DNA of 59,995 nt from assembly GCA_012842275.1 (NCBI GenBank), contig DUSK01000095.1, positions 1-59,995 of the forward strand, written 5' to 3'. The notes under the pieces are model-generated. The model searched no databases. It was not told the origin of the DNA and saw only the letters and a list, made by a program, of their open reading frames with translations. The translations under genes and the position numbers were made by a program. Below, piece by piece: positions 6,823 to 54,336 of the stretch. Position 1 is the stretch's first letter. Each line of letters opens with the position of its first letter. The DNA is from Syntrophaceticus sp. (GTDB taxonomy: Bacteria; Bacillota; DSM-12270; Thermacetogeniales; Thermacetogeniaceae).

Positions 6823-7641
6823 GTGATTTCCAAAAAATTGCGCTATTCTATCTCCGCCATTCTTGTCGGTATACTGCTCACAGTGATGCCCTTAACAGCT
6901 TTTGCGGCCACAAGGTATGTCTATTATCAGGGCAGTCTCAGTGATCAGCTGTTGATCAGTATCCTGAAAAGGGTTTTTCCTTGTGATGATTTAAAAATCA
7001 TACGCCCCCAACCGGTTCCACAGCCTGAACCAGAACCACAGCCGGAACCGGAACCGGTGCCTCAGGATCCGCAGCCTGAGCCTCAAGAGCCAGAGCCTGA
7101 GCCTAAGGATCCACAGCCTGAACCTGAGCCTCAGGAGCCGCAAAAACCTGATCCACAGCCACAGCCACAGCCGCAACCGCAACCACAACCTCAGCCACAG
7201 CCACAACCTCAACCACAGCCGCAGCCTGAACCTAAACCTGGCTCTGATGTGATTGCTCTGACCCAGGATGAACAGAAGATGATCAATCTGGTCAACCAGG
7301 AGCGACAGAAACACGGGCTGAAACCTTTAGAGGTAGATTATCAATTGGTGAAACTGGCCAGGATGAAAAGCCAGGATATGGTGGACAAGAATTATTTCAG
7401 TCACCAGTCGCCAACCTATGGCTCTCCCTTTGACATGATGAAAAATGCCGGAGTGCGCTATCGCTGGGCAGGAGAAAACATAGCCGGTGCCGGCACTGTT
7501 GAGAGGGCGCATACCGCTTTGATGAATTCTGAGGGGCACCGCGCCAATATTTTAAATCCGAACTTTACCCATATCGGTGTCGGTATAGTTAAAGGCGGCC
7601 CCTATGGAATGATGTTTACCCAGATGTTTATTGGAAAATAG
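6823..7641 (+). CDS. YkwD-like CAP/SCP domain protein with N-terminal anchor and Pro-rich linker
   Basis: GTG start after AAAGGAGACGA. N-terminal hydrophobic signal/anchor, then a PE/PQ linker. The C-terminal domain reads LVNQERQKHGLKPL..YFSHQSPTYGSPFDM..AGENIA..ALMNSEGHRANILNPNFTHIGVG, typical of YkwD/CAP. Confidence 0.8.
   Translation: MISKKLRYSISAILVGILLTVMPLTAFAATRYVYYQGSLSDQLLISILKRVFPCDDLKIIRPQPVPQPEPEPQPEPEPVPQDPQPEPQEPEPEPKDPQPEPEPQEPQKPDPQPQPQPQPQPQPQPQPQPQPQPQPEPKPGSDVIALTQDEQKMINLVNQERQKHGLKPLEVDYQLVKLARMKSQDMVDKNYFSHQSPTYGSPFDMMKNAGVRYRWAGENIAGAGTVERAHTALMNSEGHRANILNPNFTHIGVGIVKGGPYGMMFTQMFIGK
7003..7242 (+). repeat. in-frame Pro-Glu/Pro-Gln low-complexity coding repeat
   Basis: About 80 codons of PEPEPQ-type units, including 12 consecutive CCN-CAR (PQ) dipeptide units at 7153-7224. 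Confidence 0.9.
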
Positions 7642-15518: not shown

Positions 15519-15723
15519 GGTTTATCCCTGTAAGCGCAGCGACCTTACGAAGGTTGTTACTTGCCCTTGACGAAGGAGCAGGTAACGACAGCTGAAGCTC
15601 AACATGGATGTTGAGCTAGGCGACTCTGCGCCATGGATGGCGTCATAGGAGCCGGTCAGCTGTCGTCTGCGACGAGTCTTAGGGCAAGTTCAACCGAGTT
15701 CAGGAGCAAGCGCAGGGATAAAC
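15519..15723 (+). ncRNA. candidate structured RNA of unknown class (strand tentative)
   Basis: Nested long-range complementarity: 15520-15530/15713-15723 (11 bp), 15552-15567/15681-15695 (14 bp with a small loop) and 15585-15595/15656-15666 (11 bp). These enclose two hairpins, 15597-15616 and 15628-15643, with identical CA-UGGA-UG tips. No ORF of 60 aa or more in the 360-nt gap. Confidence 0.45.
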
Positions 15724-31514: not shown

Positions 31515-31610
31515 TATTTTTTTTGTAAAATGATCAAGAATAAGCAGGAGTTTCAAGGGTTTCGGCGAATTAGGTAGCCGAACCAGAAATTTCTTTTAGG
31601 AGGGATCTAC

Positions 31611-39855: not shown

Positions 39856-40018
39856 AATATGTAATTAATGCTTTAAAATAGTTTTAAAGGAAAGAGAGGA
39901 ATATTTATCTCTTAATAGAATAAAGTACGAGAAAAGGGTGTGATTTTGCAAGAGTACTGCTGTTGAATCGGAATCTGTTATCATACAAGACTTCACTATA
40001 TATATTGGGGGAAAGATC

Positions 40019-41356
40019 ATGAAATTAGTTGTTCAGGGTGGCACACCGCTTAAGGGTAGGGTCCGGATCAGTGGAGCAAAAAACTCTTCACTGGTACTGA
40101 TCGCTGCTAGTGCTATCAGCAGTGGAGAGGTTATTCTTGATAATGTACCGAGAATTGCTGATGTAAAAACCCAGTTGGAGATTGTGCGTGTACTTGGTGG
40201 TCAGGCTGTTTGGGAAGGGAAAAATACCCTGCGTCTAAAGTGGCCTGGGCGGCTGAACTGCGAAATTCCATACAGCTTGGCCAAAAAAATTAGGGCTTCC
40301 AATCTGTTTCTGGGTGCTCTGGCAGCTAAAAGAGGACGGGTCAAAATACCTCTTCCCGGCGGCTGCAATATCGGGTCCAGGCCAATGGATCTGCATCTCA
40401 AAGGCCTCAGCATGCTTGGCTTTGATGTTAGTTTGGAACATGGTTTTATTGAAGCCATTCCCAAAAATGTTGAGGGTTGCACGATTTACCTGGACTTTCC
40501 CAGTGTAGGGGCAACTGAGAATATTATGATGGCAGCAGCTGGTGCACCGGGCACTACTGTCATCGAAAACGCGGCTAAAGAACCGGAAATAGTTGATCTG
40601 GCCAATTTTTTAAATGCCATGGGAGGAAAGGTGCGCGGGGCTGGTACTGATGTGATCAGAATTGATGGAACGCAAGAGTTTCAAGGAACCAGATTCAGTG
40701 TTATACCGGACCGCATTGAAGCGGGAACCTATATGATCGCGGCCGGGGTGAGCGGCGGAGAAGTGACAGTGGAAAATGTGATTGTTAAGCACCTGCAGCC
40801 TGTGATAGCAAAACTTCAGGATGTGGGGCTTGAAGTAGAGGCTAATGAAGACAAAATAACAGTGAGACGGGTGGGGGAGCTGACCGCAACCGATATTAAA
40901 ACACTCCCTTACCCTGGTTTTCCCACAGACCTGCAGTCTCCTATGATGGTTCTCCTTGCTCTGGCCAAAGGTACAAGTGTGATCGTAGAAAATGTCTTTG
41001 AAAACCGCTTTCAGGTGGCAGATGAACTAAAGCGCATGGGTGCCAAAATACAGGTTAAAGGTCACTCTGCTGTGATAGAAGGTGTTGAACATCTTTCCGG
41101 TGCCCAGGTGAAGGCGTCGGATCTGCGGGCAGGGGCCTCCCTGCTGCTGGCAGGGTTTGCTGCTCAGGGTGAAACAGAAATCTCAGCTGCTGAATTGATC
41201 ACCAGGGGTTATGAAGCGGTAGTGGGCAAATTCAGCAATATGGGTGCTAAGATCAAGGTATTGACTGAGGAAGGTGACGGTCTGGGAATTTGTGCTGGCC
41301 TTACAGGTTTTGAAGAAGACCAAGGCAATGATCAGACCGGATGCGCCAGTTCCTGA
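40019..41356 (+). CDS. murA: UDP-N-acetylglucosamine 1-carboxyvinyltransferase
   Basis: L.G.V.ISGAKNS.L, GGC.IG.RP.DLHLKGL (active-site Cys) and FPTDLQ motifs, with a ~25-aa C-terminal extension. Confidence 0.95.
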   Translation: MKLVVQGGTPLKGRVRISGAKNSSLVLIAASAISSGEVILDNVPRIADVKTQLEIVRVLGGQAVWEGKNTLRLKWPGRLNCEIPYSLAKKIRASNLFLGALAAKRGRVKIPLPGGCNIGSRPMDLHLKGLSMLGFDVSLEHGFIEAIPKNVEGCTIYLDFPSVGATENIMMAAAGAPGTTVIENAAKEPEIVDLANFLNAMGGKVRGAGTDVIRIDGTQEFQGTRFSVIPDRIEAGTYMIAAGVSGGEVTVENVIVKHLQPVIAKLQDVGLEVEANEDKITVRRVGELTATDIKTLPYPGFPTDLQSPMMVLLALAKGTSVIVENVFENRFQVADELKRMGAKIQVKGHSAVIEGVEHLSGAQVKASDLRAGASLLLAGFAAQGETEISAAELITRGYEAVVGKFSNMGAKIKVLTEEGDGLGICAGLTGFEEDQGNDQTGCASS

Positions 41357-42625: not shown

Positions 42626-43096
42626 ATGCACTTTTTCATCATTGCTGTGGGGCAGATGAAGGAACCCTTTTATCTTGCTGCCCAGGAGGAATACTGCAAA
42701 AGGCTGAGCAGATATGCTCGGGTCACTATCCAGGAGGTTGCTGATGACCCTGTTCCTCGGGGGGAGAAGGACCGCCTCAATGTTAAAGAACGCCAGGGTG
42801 AAAGGCTGTTGAAAAAGGCACCCGGCTGTTTTTCTGTTGCTGTGGACCCCCGCGGAAAGGCCCTTTCTTCTGAGGAGTTGGCTTCCTGGTTGGGTGAGCA
42901 GTTTAATTCGGGAAGAGGGGATATCGCCTTTTTCCTGGGGGGTACCCTGGGCTTGCCTGATTCTGTTCTGCAGCAAGCTGATTATGTCCTTTCCTTATCC
43001 CGCCTCACTTTCCCCCATCAGCTGGCCCGGATAATTGTATTGGAACAGTTGTACAGGGCCTTGCGCATCCTCAATCATGAACCCTACCATTATTAA
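42626..43096 (+). CDS. rlmH: 23S rRNA (pseudouridine1915-N3)-methyltransferase (SPOUT)
   Basis: 156 aa. MHFFIIAVGQMK..Y.KRL and the C-terminal FFLGG..G..SLS.LTFPHQLARIIL.EQLYRA are canonical RlmH. Confidence 0.9.
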   Translation: MHFFIIAVGQMKEPFYLAAQEEYCKRLSRYARVTIQEVADDPVPRGEKDRLNVKERQGERLLKKAPGCFSVAVDPRGKALSSEELASWLGEQFNSGRGDIAFFLGGTLGLPDSVLQQADYVLSLSRLTFPHQLARIIVLEQLYRALRILNHEPYHY

Positions 43097-43212
43097 TTTC
43101 CCTAAACAGGAACTCTCTCCTTTTGACCCCATAATTATTATAATATGTCTTCACTGGAAGGGTTTTCTGTTCTCTTGTCGAATATGCCAATTTTAGATGA
43201 TCGTGGAAAGGG

Positions 43213-44610
43213 ATGGCTGAATTGGCGAAAATCTGCACAGGGATCAAGGGTTTTGACAGCCTGTTTGATGGTGGGATCCTGGAAGGCAGCACAGTTCTGG
43301 TTGAGGGCATGCCTGGGGCAGGGAAGACCACTTTGGGTATGGAATTCATCTACCGGGGGATCCAGGAATATGGTGACCCCGGGCTGATCATAACCTTTGA
43401 ACAGTTCCCAGAAACGCTCTACCGGGATGCTTTGAGTTTGGGATGGGACCTGCAGGCATTAGAAAAGGAGAACAGACTGAGGGTCATCTGTACATCACCT
43501 GAAGTTATCCTCTTTCCTGAATCCAATTTCTTAGAGCAGGTGGTTAAGGAAACAGCTGCCAAAAGGGTGTTGGTGGATAGTATTTCTCATTTTTATCAGG
43601 TGGTGCATCACTCCCTGAAACTGAGGCAGTCTTTTTACTCTTTCTGTAACTGCCTTCACCGGCTCCGCTTAACCTCCTTTCTGGTCAAAGAGTTGGAACA
43701 GGATAAGGAAAATCTCCATTCATTTGAAGAGTTTTTGGTAGATATCGTAGTGCGCCTCCACTATGATGCCAGGGATGGACTGAAGCGCCAGCGCACAATT
43801 GAGGTAATAAAAAGCCGCGGCCAATCTCACCTTTCCGGTAGGCACGGTTTTCAAATAAAAAAAGGGGGTACCCGAGTTTTCCCCTTTAGTTATCTGCCAG
43901 ACATTAGTGGCGGCAATTCCAAGGAATGTATACCCACAGGGATCAATGGATTAGATTTTTTATTAGGGAAGGGACTGCCTCGGGGAACTACTGTCCTTGT
44001 AGCCGGAGAGACCGGAACCGGAAAATCAGTGCTGGGGCTTGAGTATTTGGTCAAAGGGGCACAACTCTTTCAGGATAAGGGGCTTTATGTTTCCCTGGAG
44101 GAACCGCCGGATAGAATCTTAATGATGGCTGCAGCATTCTCCTATAAGCTGGATGCCCTGATTGAGGAGGGCAGTATACAGCTCATGTTCAGGCCGTTTT
44201 TGAATACCCATCCCGATGAGCTGTGGGTCGAACTGACCGATAAGATTAAGGAATACGGGATCAAACGCCTTGTTCTGGACCCGCTGCCTGCGCTGATCAG
44301 CCGCATTGGAGATCCCTATGTGCTGCGGGAGAGGATCTATTATCTGACAACCTATCTGAATATGCTGGGGTGCACCTCTTTTCTCCTTTATTCGTTAGAC
44401 AATAATGGAAATGACCGTCAGTTCGGTATTGTCCAGTCCGTGGTTCAGGGGAGTGTGATTCTAAAATACTGTTGGTTTCAGAACAGGAGACAGCGGCAAC
44501 TGGAGATCCACAAACTGCGGGGAGGCAGCCATATCACCGGGAATCATTTAATGGAGATCACTAAAAAGGGCATACAGATCTTCCCCAATCCGGGAGGTTT
44601 AAGAACATGA
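43213..44610 (+). CDS. KaiC-like double RecA-domain ATPase
   Basis: Two tandem domains, each with TGIxGxDxL, a Walker A (GMPGAGKTT; GETGTGKSV), a post-P-loop acidic pair (TFEQ; SLEE), a Walker B (RVLVDSIS; RLVLDPLP) and a K.RG..H motif (VIKSRGQSH; IHKLRGGSH). Confidence 0.85.
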   Translation: MAELAKICTGIKGFDSLFDGGILEGSTVLVEGMPGAGKTTLGMEFIYRGIQEYGDPGLIITFEQFPETLYRDALSLGWDLQALEKENRLRVICTSPEVILFPESNFLEQVVKETAAKRVLVDSISHFYQVVHHSLKLRQSFYSFCNCLHRLRLTSFLVKELEQDKENLHSFEEFLVDIVVRLHYDARDGLKRQRTIEVIKSRGQSHLSGRHGFQIKKGGTRVFPFSYLPDISGGNSKECIPTGINGLDFLLGKGLPRGTTVLVAGETGTGKSVLGLEYLVKGAQLFQDKGLYVSLEEPPDRILMMAAAFSYKLDALIEEGSIQLMFRPFLNTHPDELWVELTDKIKEYGIKRLVLDPLPALISRIGDPYVLRERIYYLTTYLNMLGCTSFLLYSLDNNGNDRQFGIVQSVVQGSVILKYCWFQNRRQRQLEIHKLRGGSHITGNHLMEITKKGIQIFPNPGGLRT

Positions 44611-45326
44611 GCGGAAGGTGCTTTTTTGGGGTTAATGGTTTGGACCAGATTATTCCCGAGGGAATGGAATACGGCACTCAAATCTTGGTCAGTGGGGATA
44701 CAGGAATAGGCAAGACCGTCCTCGCAGGGCAATTTCTGCTTGAGGGGCTTCTCTGCGGTGACACCTGTATTTATGTGGCTTGTGATGAATCTCCTTCTGT
44801 TATGCGCCGCCACCTGAGGGATTATAAGGTGGGTGTGCAGGCCTATGAAAATGCAGGGCGATTAATTCTAGTTGATGCTTATGAGGAAGGGGAGAGCAAG
44901 GAGAAGTATTTTATTGCCAATCAGTACAGCCTGGAAAAATACGCGGTTATGGAAAGGCTTCTTTTGCAGCGCTTTCCCGGCAGGAGACTCCGTCTGGTGG
45001 TAGACAGCCTGAGCACTCTGCTGATCCCTTTTACACAGGAGGAGATCCTGGAGTTTCACAGAAACAGACTGAAATATCTGCGAAAAAACGGAGTGCTGAC
45101 CATGGATATCATGGTTGACGGAGTGTTGGATCAAAGGCTGATGACCATTGCCGGGCATTTATACAATGTTACTGTGCGGATGAAGTTCGGTGGCTCTGAG
45201 GGGCGGCCGGACAGGATGATCCAAGTAGGGAAGGTCAAGAGCGGCAAATTTGATGCTGTTCCTCGCCGGTTCGGGATCAGCCCGGTTTTCGGTATTATCA
45301 TTTATGCCGCGGATATGGAGGTATAA
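44607..45326 (+). CDS. KaiC/RadA-like single-domain ATPase
   Basis: GVNGLDQIIPEG.., Walker A GDTGIGKTV, ACDESP, Walker B LRLVVDSLS. The start overlaps the upstream stop (ATGA). Confidence 0.8.
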   Translation: MSGRCFFGVNGLDQIIPEGMEYGTQILVSGDTGIGKTVLAGQFLLEGLLCGDTCIYVACDESPSVMRRHLRDYKVGVQAYENAGRLILVDAYEEGESKEKYFIANQYSLEKYAVMERLLLQRFPGRRLRLVVDSLSTLLIPFTQEEILEFHRNRLKYLRKNGVLTMDIMVDGVLDQRLMTIAGHLYNVTVRMKFGGSEGRPDRMIQVGKVKSGKFDAVPRRFGISPVFGIIIYAADMEV

Positions 45327-45330
45327 AGGG

Positions 45331-46329
45331 ATGAACAATACAGCAGAGCTTTACCAAAGGATTATCAACTCCATCTATTTATCTTTGAGCGAGACCATCG
45401 CAAAAATTCCTTTCGGCGGTAAGTACCTGCTGGAAGAGGTAACCCGGAAGGTCGGGGAACGCATATTAAAAGAAAATGAAAAAAAATATCCACCTGAGAG
45501 TAAAAGACCTGTTGATATCTGTACTGCCTATTTGAAAGCCATCGGTGCTGCTGACCCTCTACAAATTGGTGTTATTGAACTGCGGGAAGAGGGCACCGAT
45601 GTTTTGATCACCATGACCCAGGAAAACTGTATTTACCGCTATTATTGTGAGGGAGCAGTGAAGGATGGGCTCTTGTTCTGCTGTCCGCGCCTGGGAGCCT
45701 TACAGTCTGTATTAACCAATACCCTGGGCATGACTTATTCCACAGAGATGAAATTGTTTGATCAAAAAACAGGGAAATGTCAGGGACGCCTTTTCCCTGT
45801 TAAGCGGCGGTTACGGTCAGAGATGGTGCACAGTTCAGGGGATACACTGACCCTTGCTGGGGAAAGGGCGATCCTGTTTACCAGAGATGTATATATTTCC
45901 CTTTTGGCTGCCATCAGGGATTATGCTCCATTTATTTTAAAAAAGGTGCTTTTTGAAGCCGGATACAGGTCATGTCTCCCTTTGGCAGAAGAGGCCTTGG
46001 TCTTCTATAATACTGCTGAGGAAGCATTAGATGTCTGTTTTGAGGAGTTAAAAAACTGCGGCCAGGGGAGATTAGAGCTTGTATCTTTGGATAAAAAAGC
46101 AGGGCATGCTGTGATTCGCTGCTATCAATCCTTTGAAGTAGATGCTGTTAAGGGGATCAAGCTTTACCGTACCCCTCGGGTGAGTTGTGACCTGCTGCGG
46201 GGGGAGCTTTCCGCTTGTTTAAGTGTAATTCTCGGACGCTCTATGGTCTGTATGGAGATGGAGTGTGCAGCCATGGAAGGGGATTACTGCGAGTTTCATG
46301 CCTATTCTGAGGAGGAAGAAAAGATATAA
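45331..46329 (+). CDS. V4R (4-vinyl reductase-type) domain protein, Cys-rich
   Basis: ATG 45331 after GGAGG (the track start 45250 is rejected). The C-terminus RVSCDLLRGELSACLSVILGRSMVCMEMECAAMEGDYCEFHA fits the V4R pattern C..G..G..E..C...GD..C.F. A second Cys-rich V4R-like half lies in the N-terminal part. Confidence 0.65.
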   Translation: MNNTAELYQRIINSIYLSLSETIAKIPFGGKYLLEEVTRKVGERILKENEKKYPPESKRPVDICTAYLKAIGAADPLQIGVIELREEGTDVLITMTQENCIYRYYCEGAVKDGLLFCCPRLGALQSVLTNTLGMTYSTEMKLFDQKTGKCQGRLFPVKRRLRSEMVHSSGDTLTLAGERAILFTRDVYISLLAAIRDYAPFILKKVLFEAGYRSCLPLAEEALVFYNTAEEALDVCFEELKNCGQGRLELVSLDKKAGHAVIRCYQSFEVDAVKGIKLYRTPRVSCDLLRGELSACLSVILGRSMVCMEMECAAMEGDYCEFHAYSEEEEKI

Positions 46330-46634
46330 TGGCTCATAAAGAGGGGGCACACCTGTCCGAACAGCAAGCTAACCAGGTTCAGGAAAGCATGATCCGCATC
46401 GATCTGCTTGCTTTTTTTCAGGCAAACCCCCATACAGTTGATACTGCAGATGGTTTAGCCAGGCGGCTGCACAGGCTACCAGCTGAGATCAGACCTGCCC
46501 TGGATTTTCTCACCAGGATTGGAGTTTTGCAAAGGGCGAACTATGGTAGCTTAGATCTCTTTTGGTTGAATAAAGGAGAGATGATCAACTCGTTTTTCAA
46601 TGAACAAAGGGGTCCTTCTCTTGAATATAAATAA
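46329..46634 (+). CDS. small putative winged-helix protein (101 aa)
   Basis: ATG shares one nucleotide with the upstream stop (TAATG). IDLLAFFQANPHTVDTADGLARRL..IRPALDFLTRIGVLQR looks like a MarR/ArsR-type wHTH. Confidence 0.55.
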   Translation: MAHKEGAHLSEQQANQVQESMIRIDLLAFFQANPHTVDTADGLARRLHRLPAEIRPALDFLTRIGVLQRANYGSLDLFWLNKGEMINSFFNEQRGPSLEYK

Positions 46635-47667
46635 AGATCCTACGTTAAATAGGGTATTGGAAGCAATCCCTCTTGGGATTGTGGTTTTTAATAGAAGTTG
46701 GAAAATAGTTGTTGTGAACAGTGCTTTTGCTGAGGTTCTAGGCATTGATCCTCAACTTGCAGGGGATCGGGATCTGAAAGAGATTTTACTCAATAAAGGA
46801 GTAAACCATAAACATCCGCTTTTCCAGACACTTGATGGTTATGAATACACCGGACCTGTACCACCTCTTACCGATAGTTATCCCTCCTATATCAGCACAC
46901 ACCTTCTGCAGGGAGAAGCAGGAGAGTGTTTGGGTGGACTTTTTCTTCTCTGGAATGCTGAGCGGCAGCAGGAATTGGAGCAGGCGGTGATCAAAGCCGA
47001 AAAATTGGCTATTATGGGTCAGCTGACCGCGATTACTCTGCATGAGGTACGCAACCCTTTAACAACTTTAAAACTGTCCCTGCAGTTGCTGTATAAAGAA
47101 CTTAAGGAATCAAAGCACGGGAAAAGCATAAAAAGGATGCTGGAATCACTGGACAGAGCAAATAATCTGATCGACAGTTATCTGCGGTTGGCAAAGCCCG
47201 GTATCCCTAAAAGACAGATCTATAAACTAAGGGAATTGATTGAGAGTGTTGCCTCCTTCTATGCAGCGGAGTTTAGCAGCAGGGGGATCCATTTTACTCA
47301 ATCATATTCTCCCTCCCTTCCTTTAATCAGTGTTGATGGGGACCAGTTTAAACAGGTTTTAGCCAATATTTTGATCAATGCCGCAGATGCAACACCCAGC
47401 GGAGGCAGTGTCAGTTTGAGTGCAGAGTATGATCAGGAAACTGAGAGTGTCAGGATCTCTGTTAGGGATACAGGGCCGGGTGTTCTTGAGGATGTGCTTC
47501 CCCATATTTTTGAACCTTTTTATAGCTCCAAGGAAAAGGGGACAGGCCTGGGGCTTTACGTCTGCCGGGAAATAATCCATAACCATGGGGGCGAGATTCA
47601 GGTCGCCAATAATTCTGATAGGGGTTGTACAGTAACCATTATTTTGCCTAAAATAGATATTAGTTAG
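46600..47667 (+). CDS. cytoplasmic PAS-domain sensor histidine kinase (orphan)
   Basis: PAS-like N-terminus (LEAIPLGIVVFN..VVNSAF), H-box LHEVRNPL, N-box LINAADA, G1 DTGPGV, G2 GTGLGL. No TM segments. Overlaps the previous gene by 35 nt; TTG 46621 is an alternative start. Confidence 0.85.
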   Translation: MNKGVLLLNINKDPTLNRVLEAIPLGIVVFNRSWKIVVVNSAFAEVLGIDPQLAGDRDLKEILLNKGVNHKHPLFQTLDGYEYTGPVPPLTDSYPSYISTHLLQGEAGECLGGLFLLWNAERQQELEQAVIKAEKLAIMGQLTAITLHEVRNPLTTLKLSLQLLYKELKESKHGKSIKRMLESLDRANNLIDSYLRLAKPGIPKRQIYKLRELIESVASFYAAEFSSRGIHFTQSYSPSLPLISVDGDQFKQVLANILINAADATPSGGSVSLSAEYDQETESVRISVRDTGPGVLEDVLPHIFEPFYSSKEKGTGLGLYVCREIIHNHGGEIQVANNSDRGCTVTIILPKIDIS

Positions 47668-47737
47668 TGCGAGTGCTTGTGTATAAAAATGGTATTATAC
47701 CTAATAATAGGAGAAGAAGTCAAAAGAGGAGAATGAT

Positions 47738-49405
47738 ATGCTGCTAGAAAATTTAAGAAAGGCCATTTATCAGGATTTAAAGGAAGCAGCTTTAAAGGCT
47801 CGGGAGGAAGGTCTGCTGGAATTCGAGGAGCTTCCGGTGTTTGTTCTGGAAAAGCCCAGGGAAAAGGCGCATGGTGATTTAGCCACCAATTTGGCCATGG
47901 TCTTAGCCCGCCCCGCCAAGAGTGCACCCAGGAAGATCGCCCAAATAATCCTGGATCACTTTCCTGCAGAGAGCAACCGGGTGATGCGCTGTGAGGTGGC
48001 AGGCCCTGGCTTTATCAACCTGTTTCTCGATCCATCCTGGGTTTATGATGTGATCCCTGAAGTTGAGGAAATGGATGAACACTACGGCTGTTCCAACATA
48101 GGTCAAGGGGAAAAGGTGCAGATTGAGTTTGTAAGCGCTAATCCCACCGGCCTTTTGCATATGGGGAATGCCCGGGGAGCAGCTCTGGGTGATACACTGG
48201 CCAATGTAATGGCTGCTGCCGGTTTTGACGTTACCAGGGAGTTTTATATCAATGATGCAGGAAACCAGATCGAGGCCTTCGGCCGCTCTCTGGAGGCCCG
48301 CTACCTGCAGTTGCTGGGCCATAATGTGCCCTTCCCAGAGGACGGTTATCCCGGAGAGGACCTGATCGAATCCATGAGGGGCTTTATCTCACAAGTGGGG
48401 GATAAATACCTGAAGGTAGCTCCCCAATTGCGCCGGGAGATTTTGGTGAAGTACGCCCTGAAAGAGAAACTGGAACAGATGAAAAATGATCTTGCCTCTT
48501 TCGGGGTTTATTATGATGTTTGGTTTTCGGAACAGACCCTACATGATTCCGGTGCTATTGAGGAGGTGTTAAAGGAACTCCAGGAGAGCGGTTATCTTTA
48601 TGAAAAGGATGGTGCCATCTGGTTCAGATCCACTCTCTTTGGTGATGAAAAGGATGAGGTGCTGGTGCGCAGTAATGGCGTACCAACCTATTTTGCGGCA
48701 GATATCGCCTACCATAAGAATAAGTTTCAGCGGGGGTTTGACCGTGTGATCAACATTTGGGGCGCGGATCACCACGGCCATGTGGCACGCCTCAAAGGAG
48801 CCATGGGTGCTTTAGGCTATAACCCTGACCGGCTGCAGGTGATCATCATGCAGCCGGTGCGGCTGTTCAGGGGAGGGGAGCCGGTAAGAATGTCCAAACG
48901 CTCCGGAGAGTATATAACCCTGCGGGATCTGATCGATGATGTGGGAAAAGATGCGGCACGCTACTTTTTTGTGAACCGCAGTTCTGACAGCCATCTGGAT
49001 TTTGACCTGGACCTGGCCCGGGAGCAGTCCAGTGACAACCCGGTTTATTATGTCCAGTATGCCCATGCCCGGATCTGCAGTATTTTGAAACAGGCGGGCG
49101 AGATCCCCAACTCCAAAGAGATCGATCTGACTTTGCTCACAGATCCGACAGAACGTGCCCTGTTGGAGGAGATCGCAGAACTGCCCAGAGAAGTGGGGTA
49201 TGCTGCCCTCCATCTGGAGCCTCACCGCCTGACCCATTATGTGTACAACCTGGCTAACCTTTTTCACGGCTTTTATACAAACTGCCATGTGCTCAATGCA
49301 GAAGCTGGCCTGCGTGAGGCGCGGCTGGCCTTGGTCAATGCCTGCCGCATTACCCTGCGCAACACTTTAAGATTAATTGGAGTTTCAGCTCCGGAAAGGA
49401 TGTGA
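47738..49405 (+). CDS. argS: arginine--tRNA ligase
   Basis: SANPTGLLHMGNARGA (HIGH region), MSKRSG (KMSKS) and a C-terminal DALR anticodon-binding domain. Confidence 0.95.
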   Translation: MLLENLRKAIYQDLKEAALKAREEGLLEFEELPVFVLEKPREKAHGDLATNLAMVLARPAKSAPRKIAQIILDHFPAESNRVMRCEVAGPGFINLFLDPSWVYDVIPEVEEMDEHYGCSNIGQGEKVQIEFVSANPTGLLHMGNARGAALGDTLANVMAAAGFDVTREFYINDAGNQIEAFGRSLEARYLQLLGHNVPFPEDGYPGEDLIESMRGFISQVGDKYLKVAPQLRREILVKYALKEKLEQMKNDLASFGVYYDVWFSEQTLHDSGAIEEVLKELQESGYLYEKDGAIWFRSTLFGDEKDEVLVRSNGVPTYFAADIAYHKNKFQRGFDRVINIWGADHHGHVARLKGAMGALGYNPDRLQVIIMQPVRLFRGGEPVRMSKRSGEYITLRDLIDDVGKDAARYFFVNRSSDSHLDFDLDLAREQSSDNPVYYVQYAHARICSILKQAGEIPNSKEIDLTLLTDPTERALLEEIAELPREVGYAALHLEPHRLTHYVYNLANLFHGFYTNCHVLNAEAGLREARLALVNACRITLRNTLRLIGVSAPERM

Positions 49406-54210: not shown

Positions 54211-54336
54211 ACCATGTAATAAAAACAGCAGCCAGTGCATTCATTATCAGAAACAATAAAAAAGGATTTAACAGATCAATGGAGAATTAGATAGAGATTG
54301 CAAATAGCTGCGGCAGTGGCGGAGGAGGTATCAGTC

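Follow-up and report, generated by a model that had tools for sequence, protein, structure and literature searches.

A 59,995-nt window of genomic DNA from Syntrophaceticus sp. (contig DUSK01000095.1) contains, at positions 43213-47667 of the + strand, five genes that form a tightly packed and genuine operon of cytoplasmic proteins. The genes are called A1, A2, V, S and K. They encode a double-domain KaiC-like ATPase, a single-domain KaiC-like ATPase, a cysteine-rich sensor protein, a predicted winged-helix protein and a soluble histidine kinase, respectively. The operon probably encodes an uncharacterised signalling system with input into a stationary-phase or sporulation decision, rather than a circadian clock. 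We propose, with moderate confidence, that a sensor of small molecules, metals or redox state is linked to an orphan kinase through an assembly of KaiC-like ATPases, and that expression sets in as cells enter stationary phase or begin to sporulate.

Layout and conservation of the operon

The five open reading frames (ORFs) are flanked by rlmH (SPOUT methyltransferase, 42626-43096) and argS (47738-49405). Direct reading of the sequence bore out the coordinates, overlaps and rlmH-argS setting given by an earlier annotation of this DNA made from the letters alone (the sequence-only reading). A1 and A2 overlap in an ATGA (44607-44610). The TAA of A2 (45324-45326) is followed by a 4-nt gap and by the ATG of V (45331), which has a GGAGG ahead of it. 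V and S share one nucleotide at 46329, within a TAATG. K starts within S: its ATG is at 46600 and S runs to 46634, so that the two share 35 nt. A TTG in the K frame at 46621, preceded at 8 nt by AAGGGG, is an equally good start and would shorten the overlap to 14 nt. The base composition of the cluster is similar to that of the remainder of the window. Consensus scans of the window found sigma-70 promoters (13 versus 11.5 expected) and intrinsic terminators (11 versus 10.9 expected) at chance counts, none of them at the cluster gene borders. No membrane-like segment was found in the five proteins (maximum Kyte-Doolittle mean over 19 residues, 1.31). As the sequence-only reading had it, kaiA, kaiB and a receiver are missing: Pfam profiles detect no KaiA or KaiB domain in any operon protein, and tblastn with four receiver (REC) queries detects no REC domain in the 60 kb window.

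The K stop codon and argS are separated by 70 nt (47668-47737) that contain no terminator-like site. A T-box or other leader was considered in this interval and rejected, no Rfam family being found there in the window or in five related loci. Because of this short spacing, devoid of terminator-like site and of Rfam leader, argS may be partly read through from the operon.

The gene order A1-A2-V-S-K is kept in about 28 distinct loci, which belong to Thermacetogeniaceae, to Desulfotomaculia and to a more divergent clade. The junction spacing in these loci is mostly between -50 and +60 nt, with a few gaps of up to about 150 nt. Since both the order and the tight spacing recur in so many distinct loci, the arrangement is far beyond chance, and the neighbourhood is conserved in related genomes. 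Scanning a single genome of each species yielded 15 of the loci, in Syntrophaceticus, Thermacetogenium and related metagenome-assembled genomes (MAGs), Desulfofundulus, Pelotomaculum, Desulfocucumis and Desulfotomaculaceae; further loci came from look-ups and from a metagenome scan. Cultivated carriers of the operon are Syntrophaceticus schinkii, Pelotomaculum thermopropionicum, Desulfofundulus salinus, Desulfocucumis palustris and Sporotomaculum syntrophicum. Among 5.8 billion proteins, just 25 clusters of V homologues were found, every one of them in Bacillota, and V and S are essentially restricted to the five-gene operon.

The operon is found in at least four genomic contexts. In Thermacetogeniaceae it adjoins argS. 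In D. salinus it is located between tRNA-synthetase/CbiA and Dtd/RelA genes, and in Pelotomaculum and on metagenome contigs it occupies other sites. In the divergent clade (loci L040, 5584-13221; L044; L045), V, S and K share 25-33% identity with their counterparts in the window; over all loci that keep the order, identity goes down to 27% for V, 28% for S and 25% for K. The upstream flank here carries glutamate synthase/glutamate dehydrogenase-like (gdh) ORFs, named from their N-terminal sequences. The other flank carries a PrsA-like (prsA) ORF, a REC-ANTAR regulator identified by Pfam and a glutamine synthetase-like (glnA) ORF. The REC-ANTAR gene lies 1.3 kb downstream of the operon, in a nitrogen-metabolism context. 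REC domains are otherwise absent from nearly all flanks, the remaining exception being in Desulfocucumis palustris (L016, 2899-4316, - strand), where a divergent pair of histidine kinase and receiver genes just upstream is probably unrelated.

Several loci depart from the complete arrangement. One metagenome locus (L036, 4062-8984) has a longer kinase (476-aa ORF as called) upstream of A1, not after S. Decayed copies are found at the rlmH-argS site: in L010 and L027 (5099-8252) A1 is fragmented and K absent, S being kept in L010; in L019 (6274-8002) only A2 and V are left; and in L002 (6280-7149) A1 has an internal deletion. A2 and V seem to be the last parts lost when the operon decays.

Part of the operon extends to other phyla. 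A2 homologues with 43-50% identity are encoded in a Deltaproteobacteria MAG, in Ktedonobacterales/Chloroflexota and in a Sphingomonadaceae MAG. Their genes belong to a wider architecture composed of a small protein, a 560-aa double KaiC-like protein, a second small protein, a 474-aa double KaiC-like protein, a single KaiC-like protein and a short (about 185 aa) XylR_N+V4R protein (L020, 3037-8343; L021, 3216-8284; L023, 2840-8261; L037; L049-L058). The two small proteins have no Pfam match; the first one, which precedes a KaiC-like gene, resembles S in one lineage only. Downstream genes vary and encode a Ser/Thr kinase, MshEN and ParA, or a REC protein. Because the trio of double KaiC-like, single KaiC-like and V4R proteins recurs across phyla with varying neighbours, it is a conserved unit, of which the long V, S and K are a Bacillota elaboration. 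The recurring trio fits a sensor-ATPase hub with exchangeable outputs.

The five proteins

A1 (43213-44610, + strand, 465 aa) is composed of two Pfam KaiC domains (PF06745, E 6e-102, 340 bits for a cut-off of 26.6), and its closest PDB matches are KaiC proteins (E 3e-66). Its domains carry, in order, Walker A motifs GAGKT (35-39) and GTGKS (268-272), catalytic-Glu motifs TFEQ (61-64) and SLEE (294-297), Walker B motifs VDS and LDP, and the motifs SRGQxH and KLRGxxH. Walker A, the catalytic Glu, Walker B and (S/K)xRGxxH are conserved in both halves across orthologues. The P-loops are thus retained in both domains, as predicted by the sequence-only reading; the acidic pair that it also placed in both is an E-E pair in domain 2 only, domain 1 having E-Q.

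A1 is not an orthologue of circadian KaiC, as four features indicate. A1 scores below the circadian-KaiC equivalog cut-offs of NCBIfam (TIGR02655 and NF006799; 236 versus 546 bits and 320 versus 408 bits). Both halves score higher to KaiC CI than to CII (116 versus 52 bits for the second half). Residues Q408-S409 align with S431/T432 of KaiC; the S431 position is Q or E, and S409 is Ser or Thr in most orthologues and Pro, Ser or Ala in the divergent clade. Finally, the A-loop is absent from A1, which stops about 10 residues past the last strand.

A2 (44607-45326, + strand, 239 aa) is a single-domain KaiC-like ATPase and the best-conserved protein of the cluster. It has one Pfam KaiC domain (E 5e-27, 95 bits for a cut-off of 26.6), a weak MEDS match besides, and NCBIfam matches to thermo_KaiC_1, KaiC_arch_3/4 and ArlH. 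The motifs GIGKT, CDES and VVDS of the window protein correspond to GD[TS]G[IV]GK[TS], CDE[PSA]P and RL[VI][VA]DSLST, conserved in the orthologue alignment. Invariant residues in a wider alignment include G30, G33, G35, K36, D60, D133, S134, S136 and T137. The C-terminal part has no KxRGxxH motif. A2 homologues form 89 clusters, and in the loci examined the A2 gene always adjoins a double-domain KaiC-like gene and a V4R gene. Profile searches thus place A1 and A2 in the KaiC family, in agreement with the sequence-only reading. The candidate identities RadA/Sms and DnaB were rejected, as only P-loop fragments match (sms, 58.7 versus 403 bits; DnaB, 23.6 versus 385).

V (45331-46329, + strand) contains 15 cysteines in 332 residues and consists of two V4R-size modules. 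The Pfam V4R match (PF02830) covers residues 282-324 only, with 28.6 bits for a cut-off of 31. V orthologues carry a precomputed PF02830 annotation, and the L040 orthologue scores 40.8 bits. The first 230 residues have no family match. V is cysteine-rich, as the sequence-only reading had it, and the V4R match, just short of the cut-off, spans only the last third of the protein. A profile built from 24 orthologues matches, over residues 208-328, PDB entry 6iy8 (labelled CapR/DmpR-phenol complex, E 1.6e-5) and MopR. Foldseek comparison of the AlphaFold2 model (pLDDT 72) gave DmpR, PoxR and MopR at E 1e-6, then Bet3/TRAPP, the V4R protein MJ1460 and H-NOX. Residues C286, E309, C312 and C320 are invariant, and their spacing (23/3/8) is that of the zinc ligands C149, E172, C175 and C183 of the XylR family (bioRxiv 10.1101/2021.01.17.427014). 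On these profile and model matches, the C-terminal module is assigned as a V4R/XylR-DmpR-type ligand-binding domain with a predicted zinc site.

The N-terminal module of V has its own set of invariant cysteines (C64, C100, C106 and C118). The order of helices and strands is similar in the two halves of the model, which is of moderate quality. The sequence similarity between them is not significant (hhalign E 0.38), and an internal duplication is unproven. An exhaustive profile search of 1.84 billion representative proteins found about 7 full-length relatives of V; all other proteins match one half only, a few of them the N-terminal half alone. Such a fusion of two V4R-size modules is thus rare. 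It also weakly matches NCBIfam MsvR, whose cysteines those of the V4R module resemble. MsvR is a redox-sensing protein.

S (46329-46634, + strand, 101 aa) is almost exclusive to the five-gene operon, with homologues in only 14 clusters, and sits between V and K in all complete loci. It has no Pfam or NCBIfam match. Its AlphaFold2 model (pLDDT 81, topology H-H-H-E-E) has modest Foldseek matches (E 7e-4 to 5e-3) to the MarR/ArsR-type proteins ZitR, MepR, CadC and HlyU. The predicted structure makes S a MarR/ArsR-like winged helix, as proposed in the sequence-only reading. S was also considered as a KaiB-like protein and rejected, the predicted fold being a winged helix and not thioredoxin-like.

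K (46600-47667, + strand, 355 aa) is a soluble PAS-HisKA-HATPase_c histidine kinase without an adjacent response regulator. Pfam recognizes HATPase_c (E 1.5e-27), HisKA (E 1e-11) and PAS_8 (E 6e-6); together with the lack of a membrane segment, these domains confirm the kinase type announced from the letters. The boxes read HEVRNPL (H box, H148), NILINA, DTGPG, FEPFYSS and GTGLGL. Orthologues keep the H, N, G1 and G2 boxes; the F box varies more among them. The H box, HE(V/I)RNPL, we take to be KinA-like. The best NCBIfam matches, AtoS, ZraS and KinD, are class-level and all far under cut-off (KinD, 154 versus 775 bits).

The region upstream of A1

A sigma-H-type promoter-like site, GAAGGGTTT-(11 nt)-GTCGAATAT, is located at 43157-43185 on the + strand and ends 28 nt before the A1 start codon. 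Compared with the sigma-H consensus RNAGGAWWW/RNNGAATWW, as quoted in PMC8510167, it has one mismatch in the first element and none in the second. A perfect Spo0A core box, TGTCGAA (defined in PMC3485338), occupies positions 43176-43182 and overlaps the -10 element. In aligned upstream regions of Thermacetogeniaceae loci, a TGTCGAATA block is conserved.

The 160 nt ahead of A1 contain the sigma-H motif in 16 of 31 distinct loci, versus 1.3% of background windows; among its carriers are loci from unrelated genomic settings and from the divergent clade. An exact TGTCGAA in forward orientation is found 37-96 nt upstream of A1 in 14 of the 31 loci, versus 1.0% of background. These motifs are enriched about 40-fold over background, with P values inflated by kinship among the loci. 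From these consensus matches we infer, on good grounds, control of the operon by sigma-H and Spo0A.

The five-gene form of the operon was found only in lineages whose named, checkable members are endospore formers. The named hosts other than S. schinkii are Desulfotomaculum-type spore formers. S. schinkii itself forms endospores and has Spo0A (PMC5113046). The sequence-only reading had presented K as an orphan kinase possibly related to sporulation. The conserved sigma-H/Spo0A-box site and the endospore-forming hosts give this idea indirect support; the link itself is one that we infer.

Five sigma-H-type sites are present in the whole window, versus 0.86 +/- 0.99 in shuffled sequences, and all four on the + strand lie in gaps just upstream of ORF starts. 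Besides the site upstream of A1, these are 31544-31572, 39895-39923 (about 95 nt upstream of a murA-like gene at 40019) and 54261-54289 (directly upstream of an ORF at 54298). The position of these three sites ahead of ORF starts suggests that the motif is a genuine promoter class in Syntrophaceticus sp.

Two further features were observed elsewhere in the window. A TwoAYGGAY RNA motif (Rfam RF01731) is found at 15545-15702 on the + strand (54.4 bits for a gathering score of 43). In the ORF at 6823-7641, tandem CCACAG-type repeats with periods of 6 to 30 (7018-7238, + strand) encode a Pro/Gln-rich low-complexity stretch.

Relation to known systems and possible function

The closest described systems are those of Pseudomonas, where a histidine kinase gene nearly always neighbours that of the KaiC homologue, and the PAS domain of the kinase is the site to which the KaiC homologue binds (bioRxiv 10.1101/2022.01.26.477890, Terrettaz et al.). 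Among these KaiC/kinase(/response regulator) modules, one group has the kinase only and no regulator, like the operon described here, and module activity changes with the age of the culture and with stationary phase rather than with a daily rhythm (bioRxiv 10.1101/2022.01.26.477890). The coupling of a KaiC homologue to an operon-encoded kinase in the absence of KaiA and KaiB is already known from these operons, and an operon-borne kinase is not a new principle (bioRxiv 10.1101/2022.01.26.477890). Unlike the operon described here, the Pseudomonas modules lack a second, single-domain KaiC-like ATPase, a V4R protein and a winged-helix protein; the present operon also differs by its Bacillota hosts and its sigma-H/Spo0A-box promoter-like site. 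A KaiC homologue with an operon kinase and without KaiA or KaiB also occurs in purple bacteria.

The cyanobacterial KaiABC-SasA/CikA-RpaA system shares with the operon a KaiC-family double ATPase, whose state is read by histidine kinases in cyanobacteria. In contrast to KaiABC, there is here no KaiA or KaiB, both A1 halves are CI-like, the A-loop is missing and Q-S replaces S431/T432. In contrast to SasA, K has no KaiB-like domain and is encoded in the operon. Archaeal KaiC-like ATPases have been proposed as signalling hubs with varied partners, as cited in a passage of PMC5847659. The likeness here resides in the combination of KaiC-like ATPases with varied sensor and output modules (winged helices, kinases, receivers), and archaeal single-domain KaiC-like proteins resemble A2, as judged from its thermo_KaiC_1, KaiC_arch_3/4, ArlH and weak MEDS matches. 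The archaeal hubs reportedly include ArlH, GvpD and MEDS/inactivated KaiC domains (attributed to Makarova, Galperin and Koonin 2017). The present operon differs from them in being bacterial and in having a fixed set of five genes.

With XylR, DmpR, MopR and PoxR, the C-terminal module of V shares the predicted sensor fold and a Cys/Glu/Cys/Cys zinc site of identical spacing, and in both cases a V4R-type sensor is tied to a P-loop ATPase. The XylR-type proteins carry their sensor in cis, fused to an AAA+ sigma-54 activator, whereas V is a separate protein beside RecA-type ATPases and has an extra Cys-rich module. As for K, the KinA kinase of Bacillus subtilis and the clostridial orphan sporulation kinases are likewise soluble orphan PAS-HisKA kinases. 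B. subtilis kinA is transcribed by sigma-H. To our knowledge, no sporulation kinase is encoded together with KaiC-like ATPases or a V4R protein. Transcription of spo0F under sigma-H is documented (PMC11599450). In the literature searched, which covered KaiC with V4R and KaiC in Pelotomaculum, Syntrophaceticus, Desulfotomaculum and Desulfofundulus, the 2017 archaeal KaiC survey being outside the coverage, we found no description of the operon. The fixed pairing of double and single KaiC-like ATPases with V4R, the two-module cysteine-rich V, S and a sporulation-type promoter in Bacillota were not found there.

The observed gene content and order, catalytic motifs, folds, zinc-site residues and promoter motifs can be assembled in a model, in which every protein-protein step and the kinase target are put conditionally. 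Because the sigma-H-type -10 element overlaps the Spo0A box, regulators of sporulation initiation would switch the operon on through this site, and would probably feed back on it. With its DmpR-like V4R pocket and its four-Cys module, V may bind a small hydrophobic ligand, sense a thiol or metal redox state, or both. It would act in trans on A1 and A2, by analogy with the gating of an ATPase domain in cis by V4R in XylR and DmpR. A1 is probably a double-ring hexamer like KaiC, and A2, a nucleotide-binding single-domain partner without KxRGxxH, may cap or modulate it. Through its N-terminal PAS domain, K could then be set by the nucleotide that the ATPase complex holds or by autophosphorylation of that complex, by analogy with the Pseudomonas KaiC homologues and, in another form, with KaiC-SasA/CikA. 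K would phosphorylate a regulator encoded elsewhere, Spo0A or a phosphorelay protein being the likeliest candidates in endospore formers. S could tether the complex to DNA or form a second, transcriptional output. A bolder version, which we consider doubtful, makes the trio a bacterial counterpart of the archaeal KaiC hub, wired through K and the sigma-H/Spo0A promoter into the sporulation decision; the KaiC-like ATPase would there be a ligand- or redox-gated integrator, or an hourglass, that sets the phosphate flux to Spo0A. In that version, the start of sporulation in anaerobes without the Bacillus phosphorelay would have an input not recognised before.

Several observations weigh against a sensor-ATPase-kinase module devoted to sporulation. 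The -35 element of the window site carries one mismatch, and the promoter assignment consists of consensus matches. Seventeen of the 31 loci lack an exact 0A box, as does the whole divergent clade, and relatedness of the loci inflates the enrichment statistics. Since S409 is not kept in the divergent clade, autophosphorylation of A1 is uncertain. A2 and V may act independently of the kinase, because L010 and L019 lost A1 and K and kept A2 and V. The class of K being generic (AtoS/ZraS/KinD-like), a partner outside sporulation fits its sequence equally well. It is thus possible, if somewhat unlikely, that the module is unrelated to sporulation, that K pairs with a distal regulator for stress, redox or nutrients, and that the motif is a mere stationary-phase promoter. 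The far sub-cut-off family matches of K, the MsvR-like cysteines of V and the position of the divergent-clade operon between gdh and a REC-ANTAR-glnA unit are in line with such a role, as are the Pseudomonas KaiC homologues, which have roles in osmotic and oxidative stress and keep pace with the age of the culture (bioRxiv 10.1101/2022.01.26.477890). However, this explanation has to accommodate that the five-gene form was found only in lineages with endospore-forming named members, and a perfect Spo0A core box at a conserved position in 14 of 31 loci.

The main output could instead be transcriptional, the ATPases and V governing DNA binding or stability of S, like GvpD with GvpE in haloarchaea, and K being an accessory input. 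The predicted MarR/ArsR-type fold of S, its strict co-inheritance with V and the ATPases, its retention in L010 where K is lost and the S-like protein ahead of a KaiC-like gene in one lineage of the wider architecture would agree with this. However, S has only about 100 residues and lacks the dimerisation helices of MarR proteins, no repeated palindrome resembling an operator was found (no search aimed at one was made), and K is retained in nearly all loci; we judge this explanation quite unlikely. A true KaiC-based timekeeper, hourglass or circadian oscillator, in a non-photosynthetic anaerobe appears very improbable. The double-domain A1 with its intact Walker motifs, the Ser/Thr aligned with T432 of KaiC in most orthologues and a kinase coupling that resembles KaiC-SasA recall such a device, but KaiB and KaiA are missing, the A1 halves are CI-like with sub-cut-off scores, Q or E takes the place of S431 and the A-loop is lacking. 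The hosts, moreover, inhabit dark anaerobic digesters and the subsurface. It is extremely improbable that the ATPases serve in DNA repair or replication (RadA/Sms, DnaB type), or that the cluster is an anti-phage island with unrelated neighbours. Weak partial matches to the P-loop regions of RadA, DnaB, RecA and Rad51 and a PADLOC mad8 match for A1 and A2 (E 5e-10, P-loop region only) point in that direction, but the KaiC family matches are stronger by 50-90 orders of magnitude, no zinc finger, Lon or helicase N-domain is present, and the five genes are strictly co-conserved in a housekeeping context without mobile-element genes. A defence system was rejected as a candidate: V, S and K have no PADLOC match, and no model other than mad8 was matched.

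The operon touches two questions, namely what many non-cyanobacterial KaiC homologues do, and by which signals and kinases Clostridia-type anaerobes are made to sporulate. In these anaerobes orphan kinases act on Spo0A, and their inputs are mostly obscure. The operon provides a defined, purifiable set of five proteins, with a ligand-binding-type sensor, two ATPases and a kinase. Even if the proposed function is not true, it is a clean, narrowly distributed KaiC-kinase module with an added V4R sensor. If the proposal is true, Gram-positive bacteria would provide a case of a KaiC-like ATPase that integrates sensory signals ahead of a two-component kinase, and the idea of KaiC hubs would extend from archaea to bacteria.

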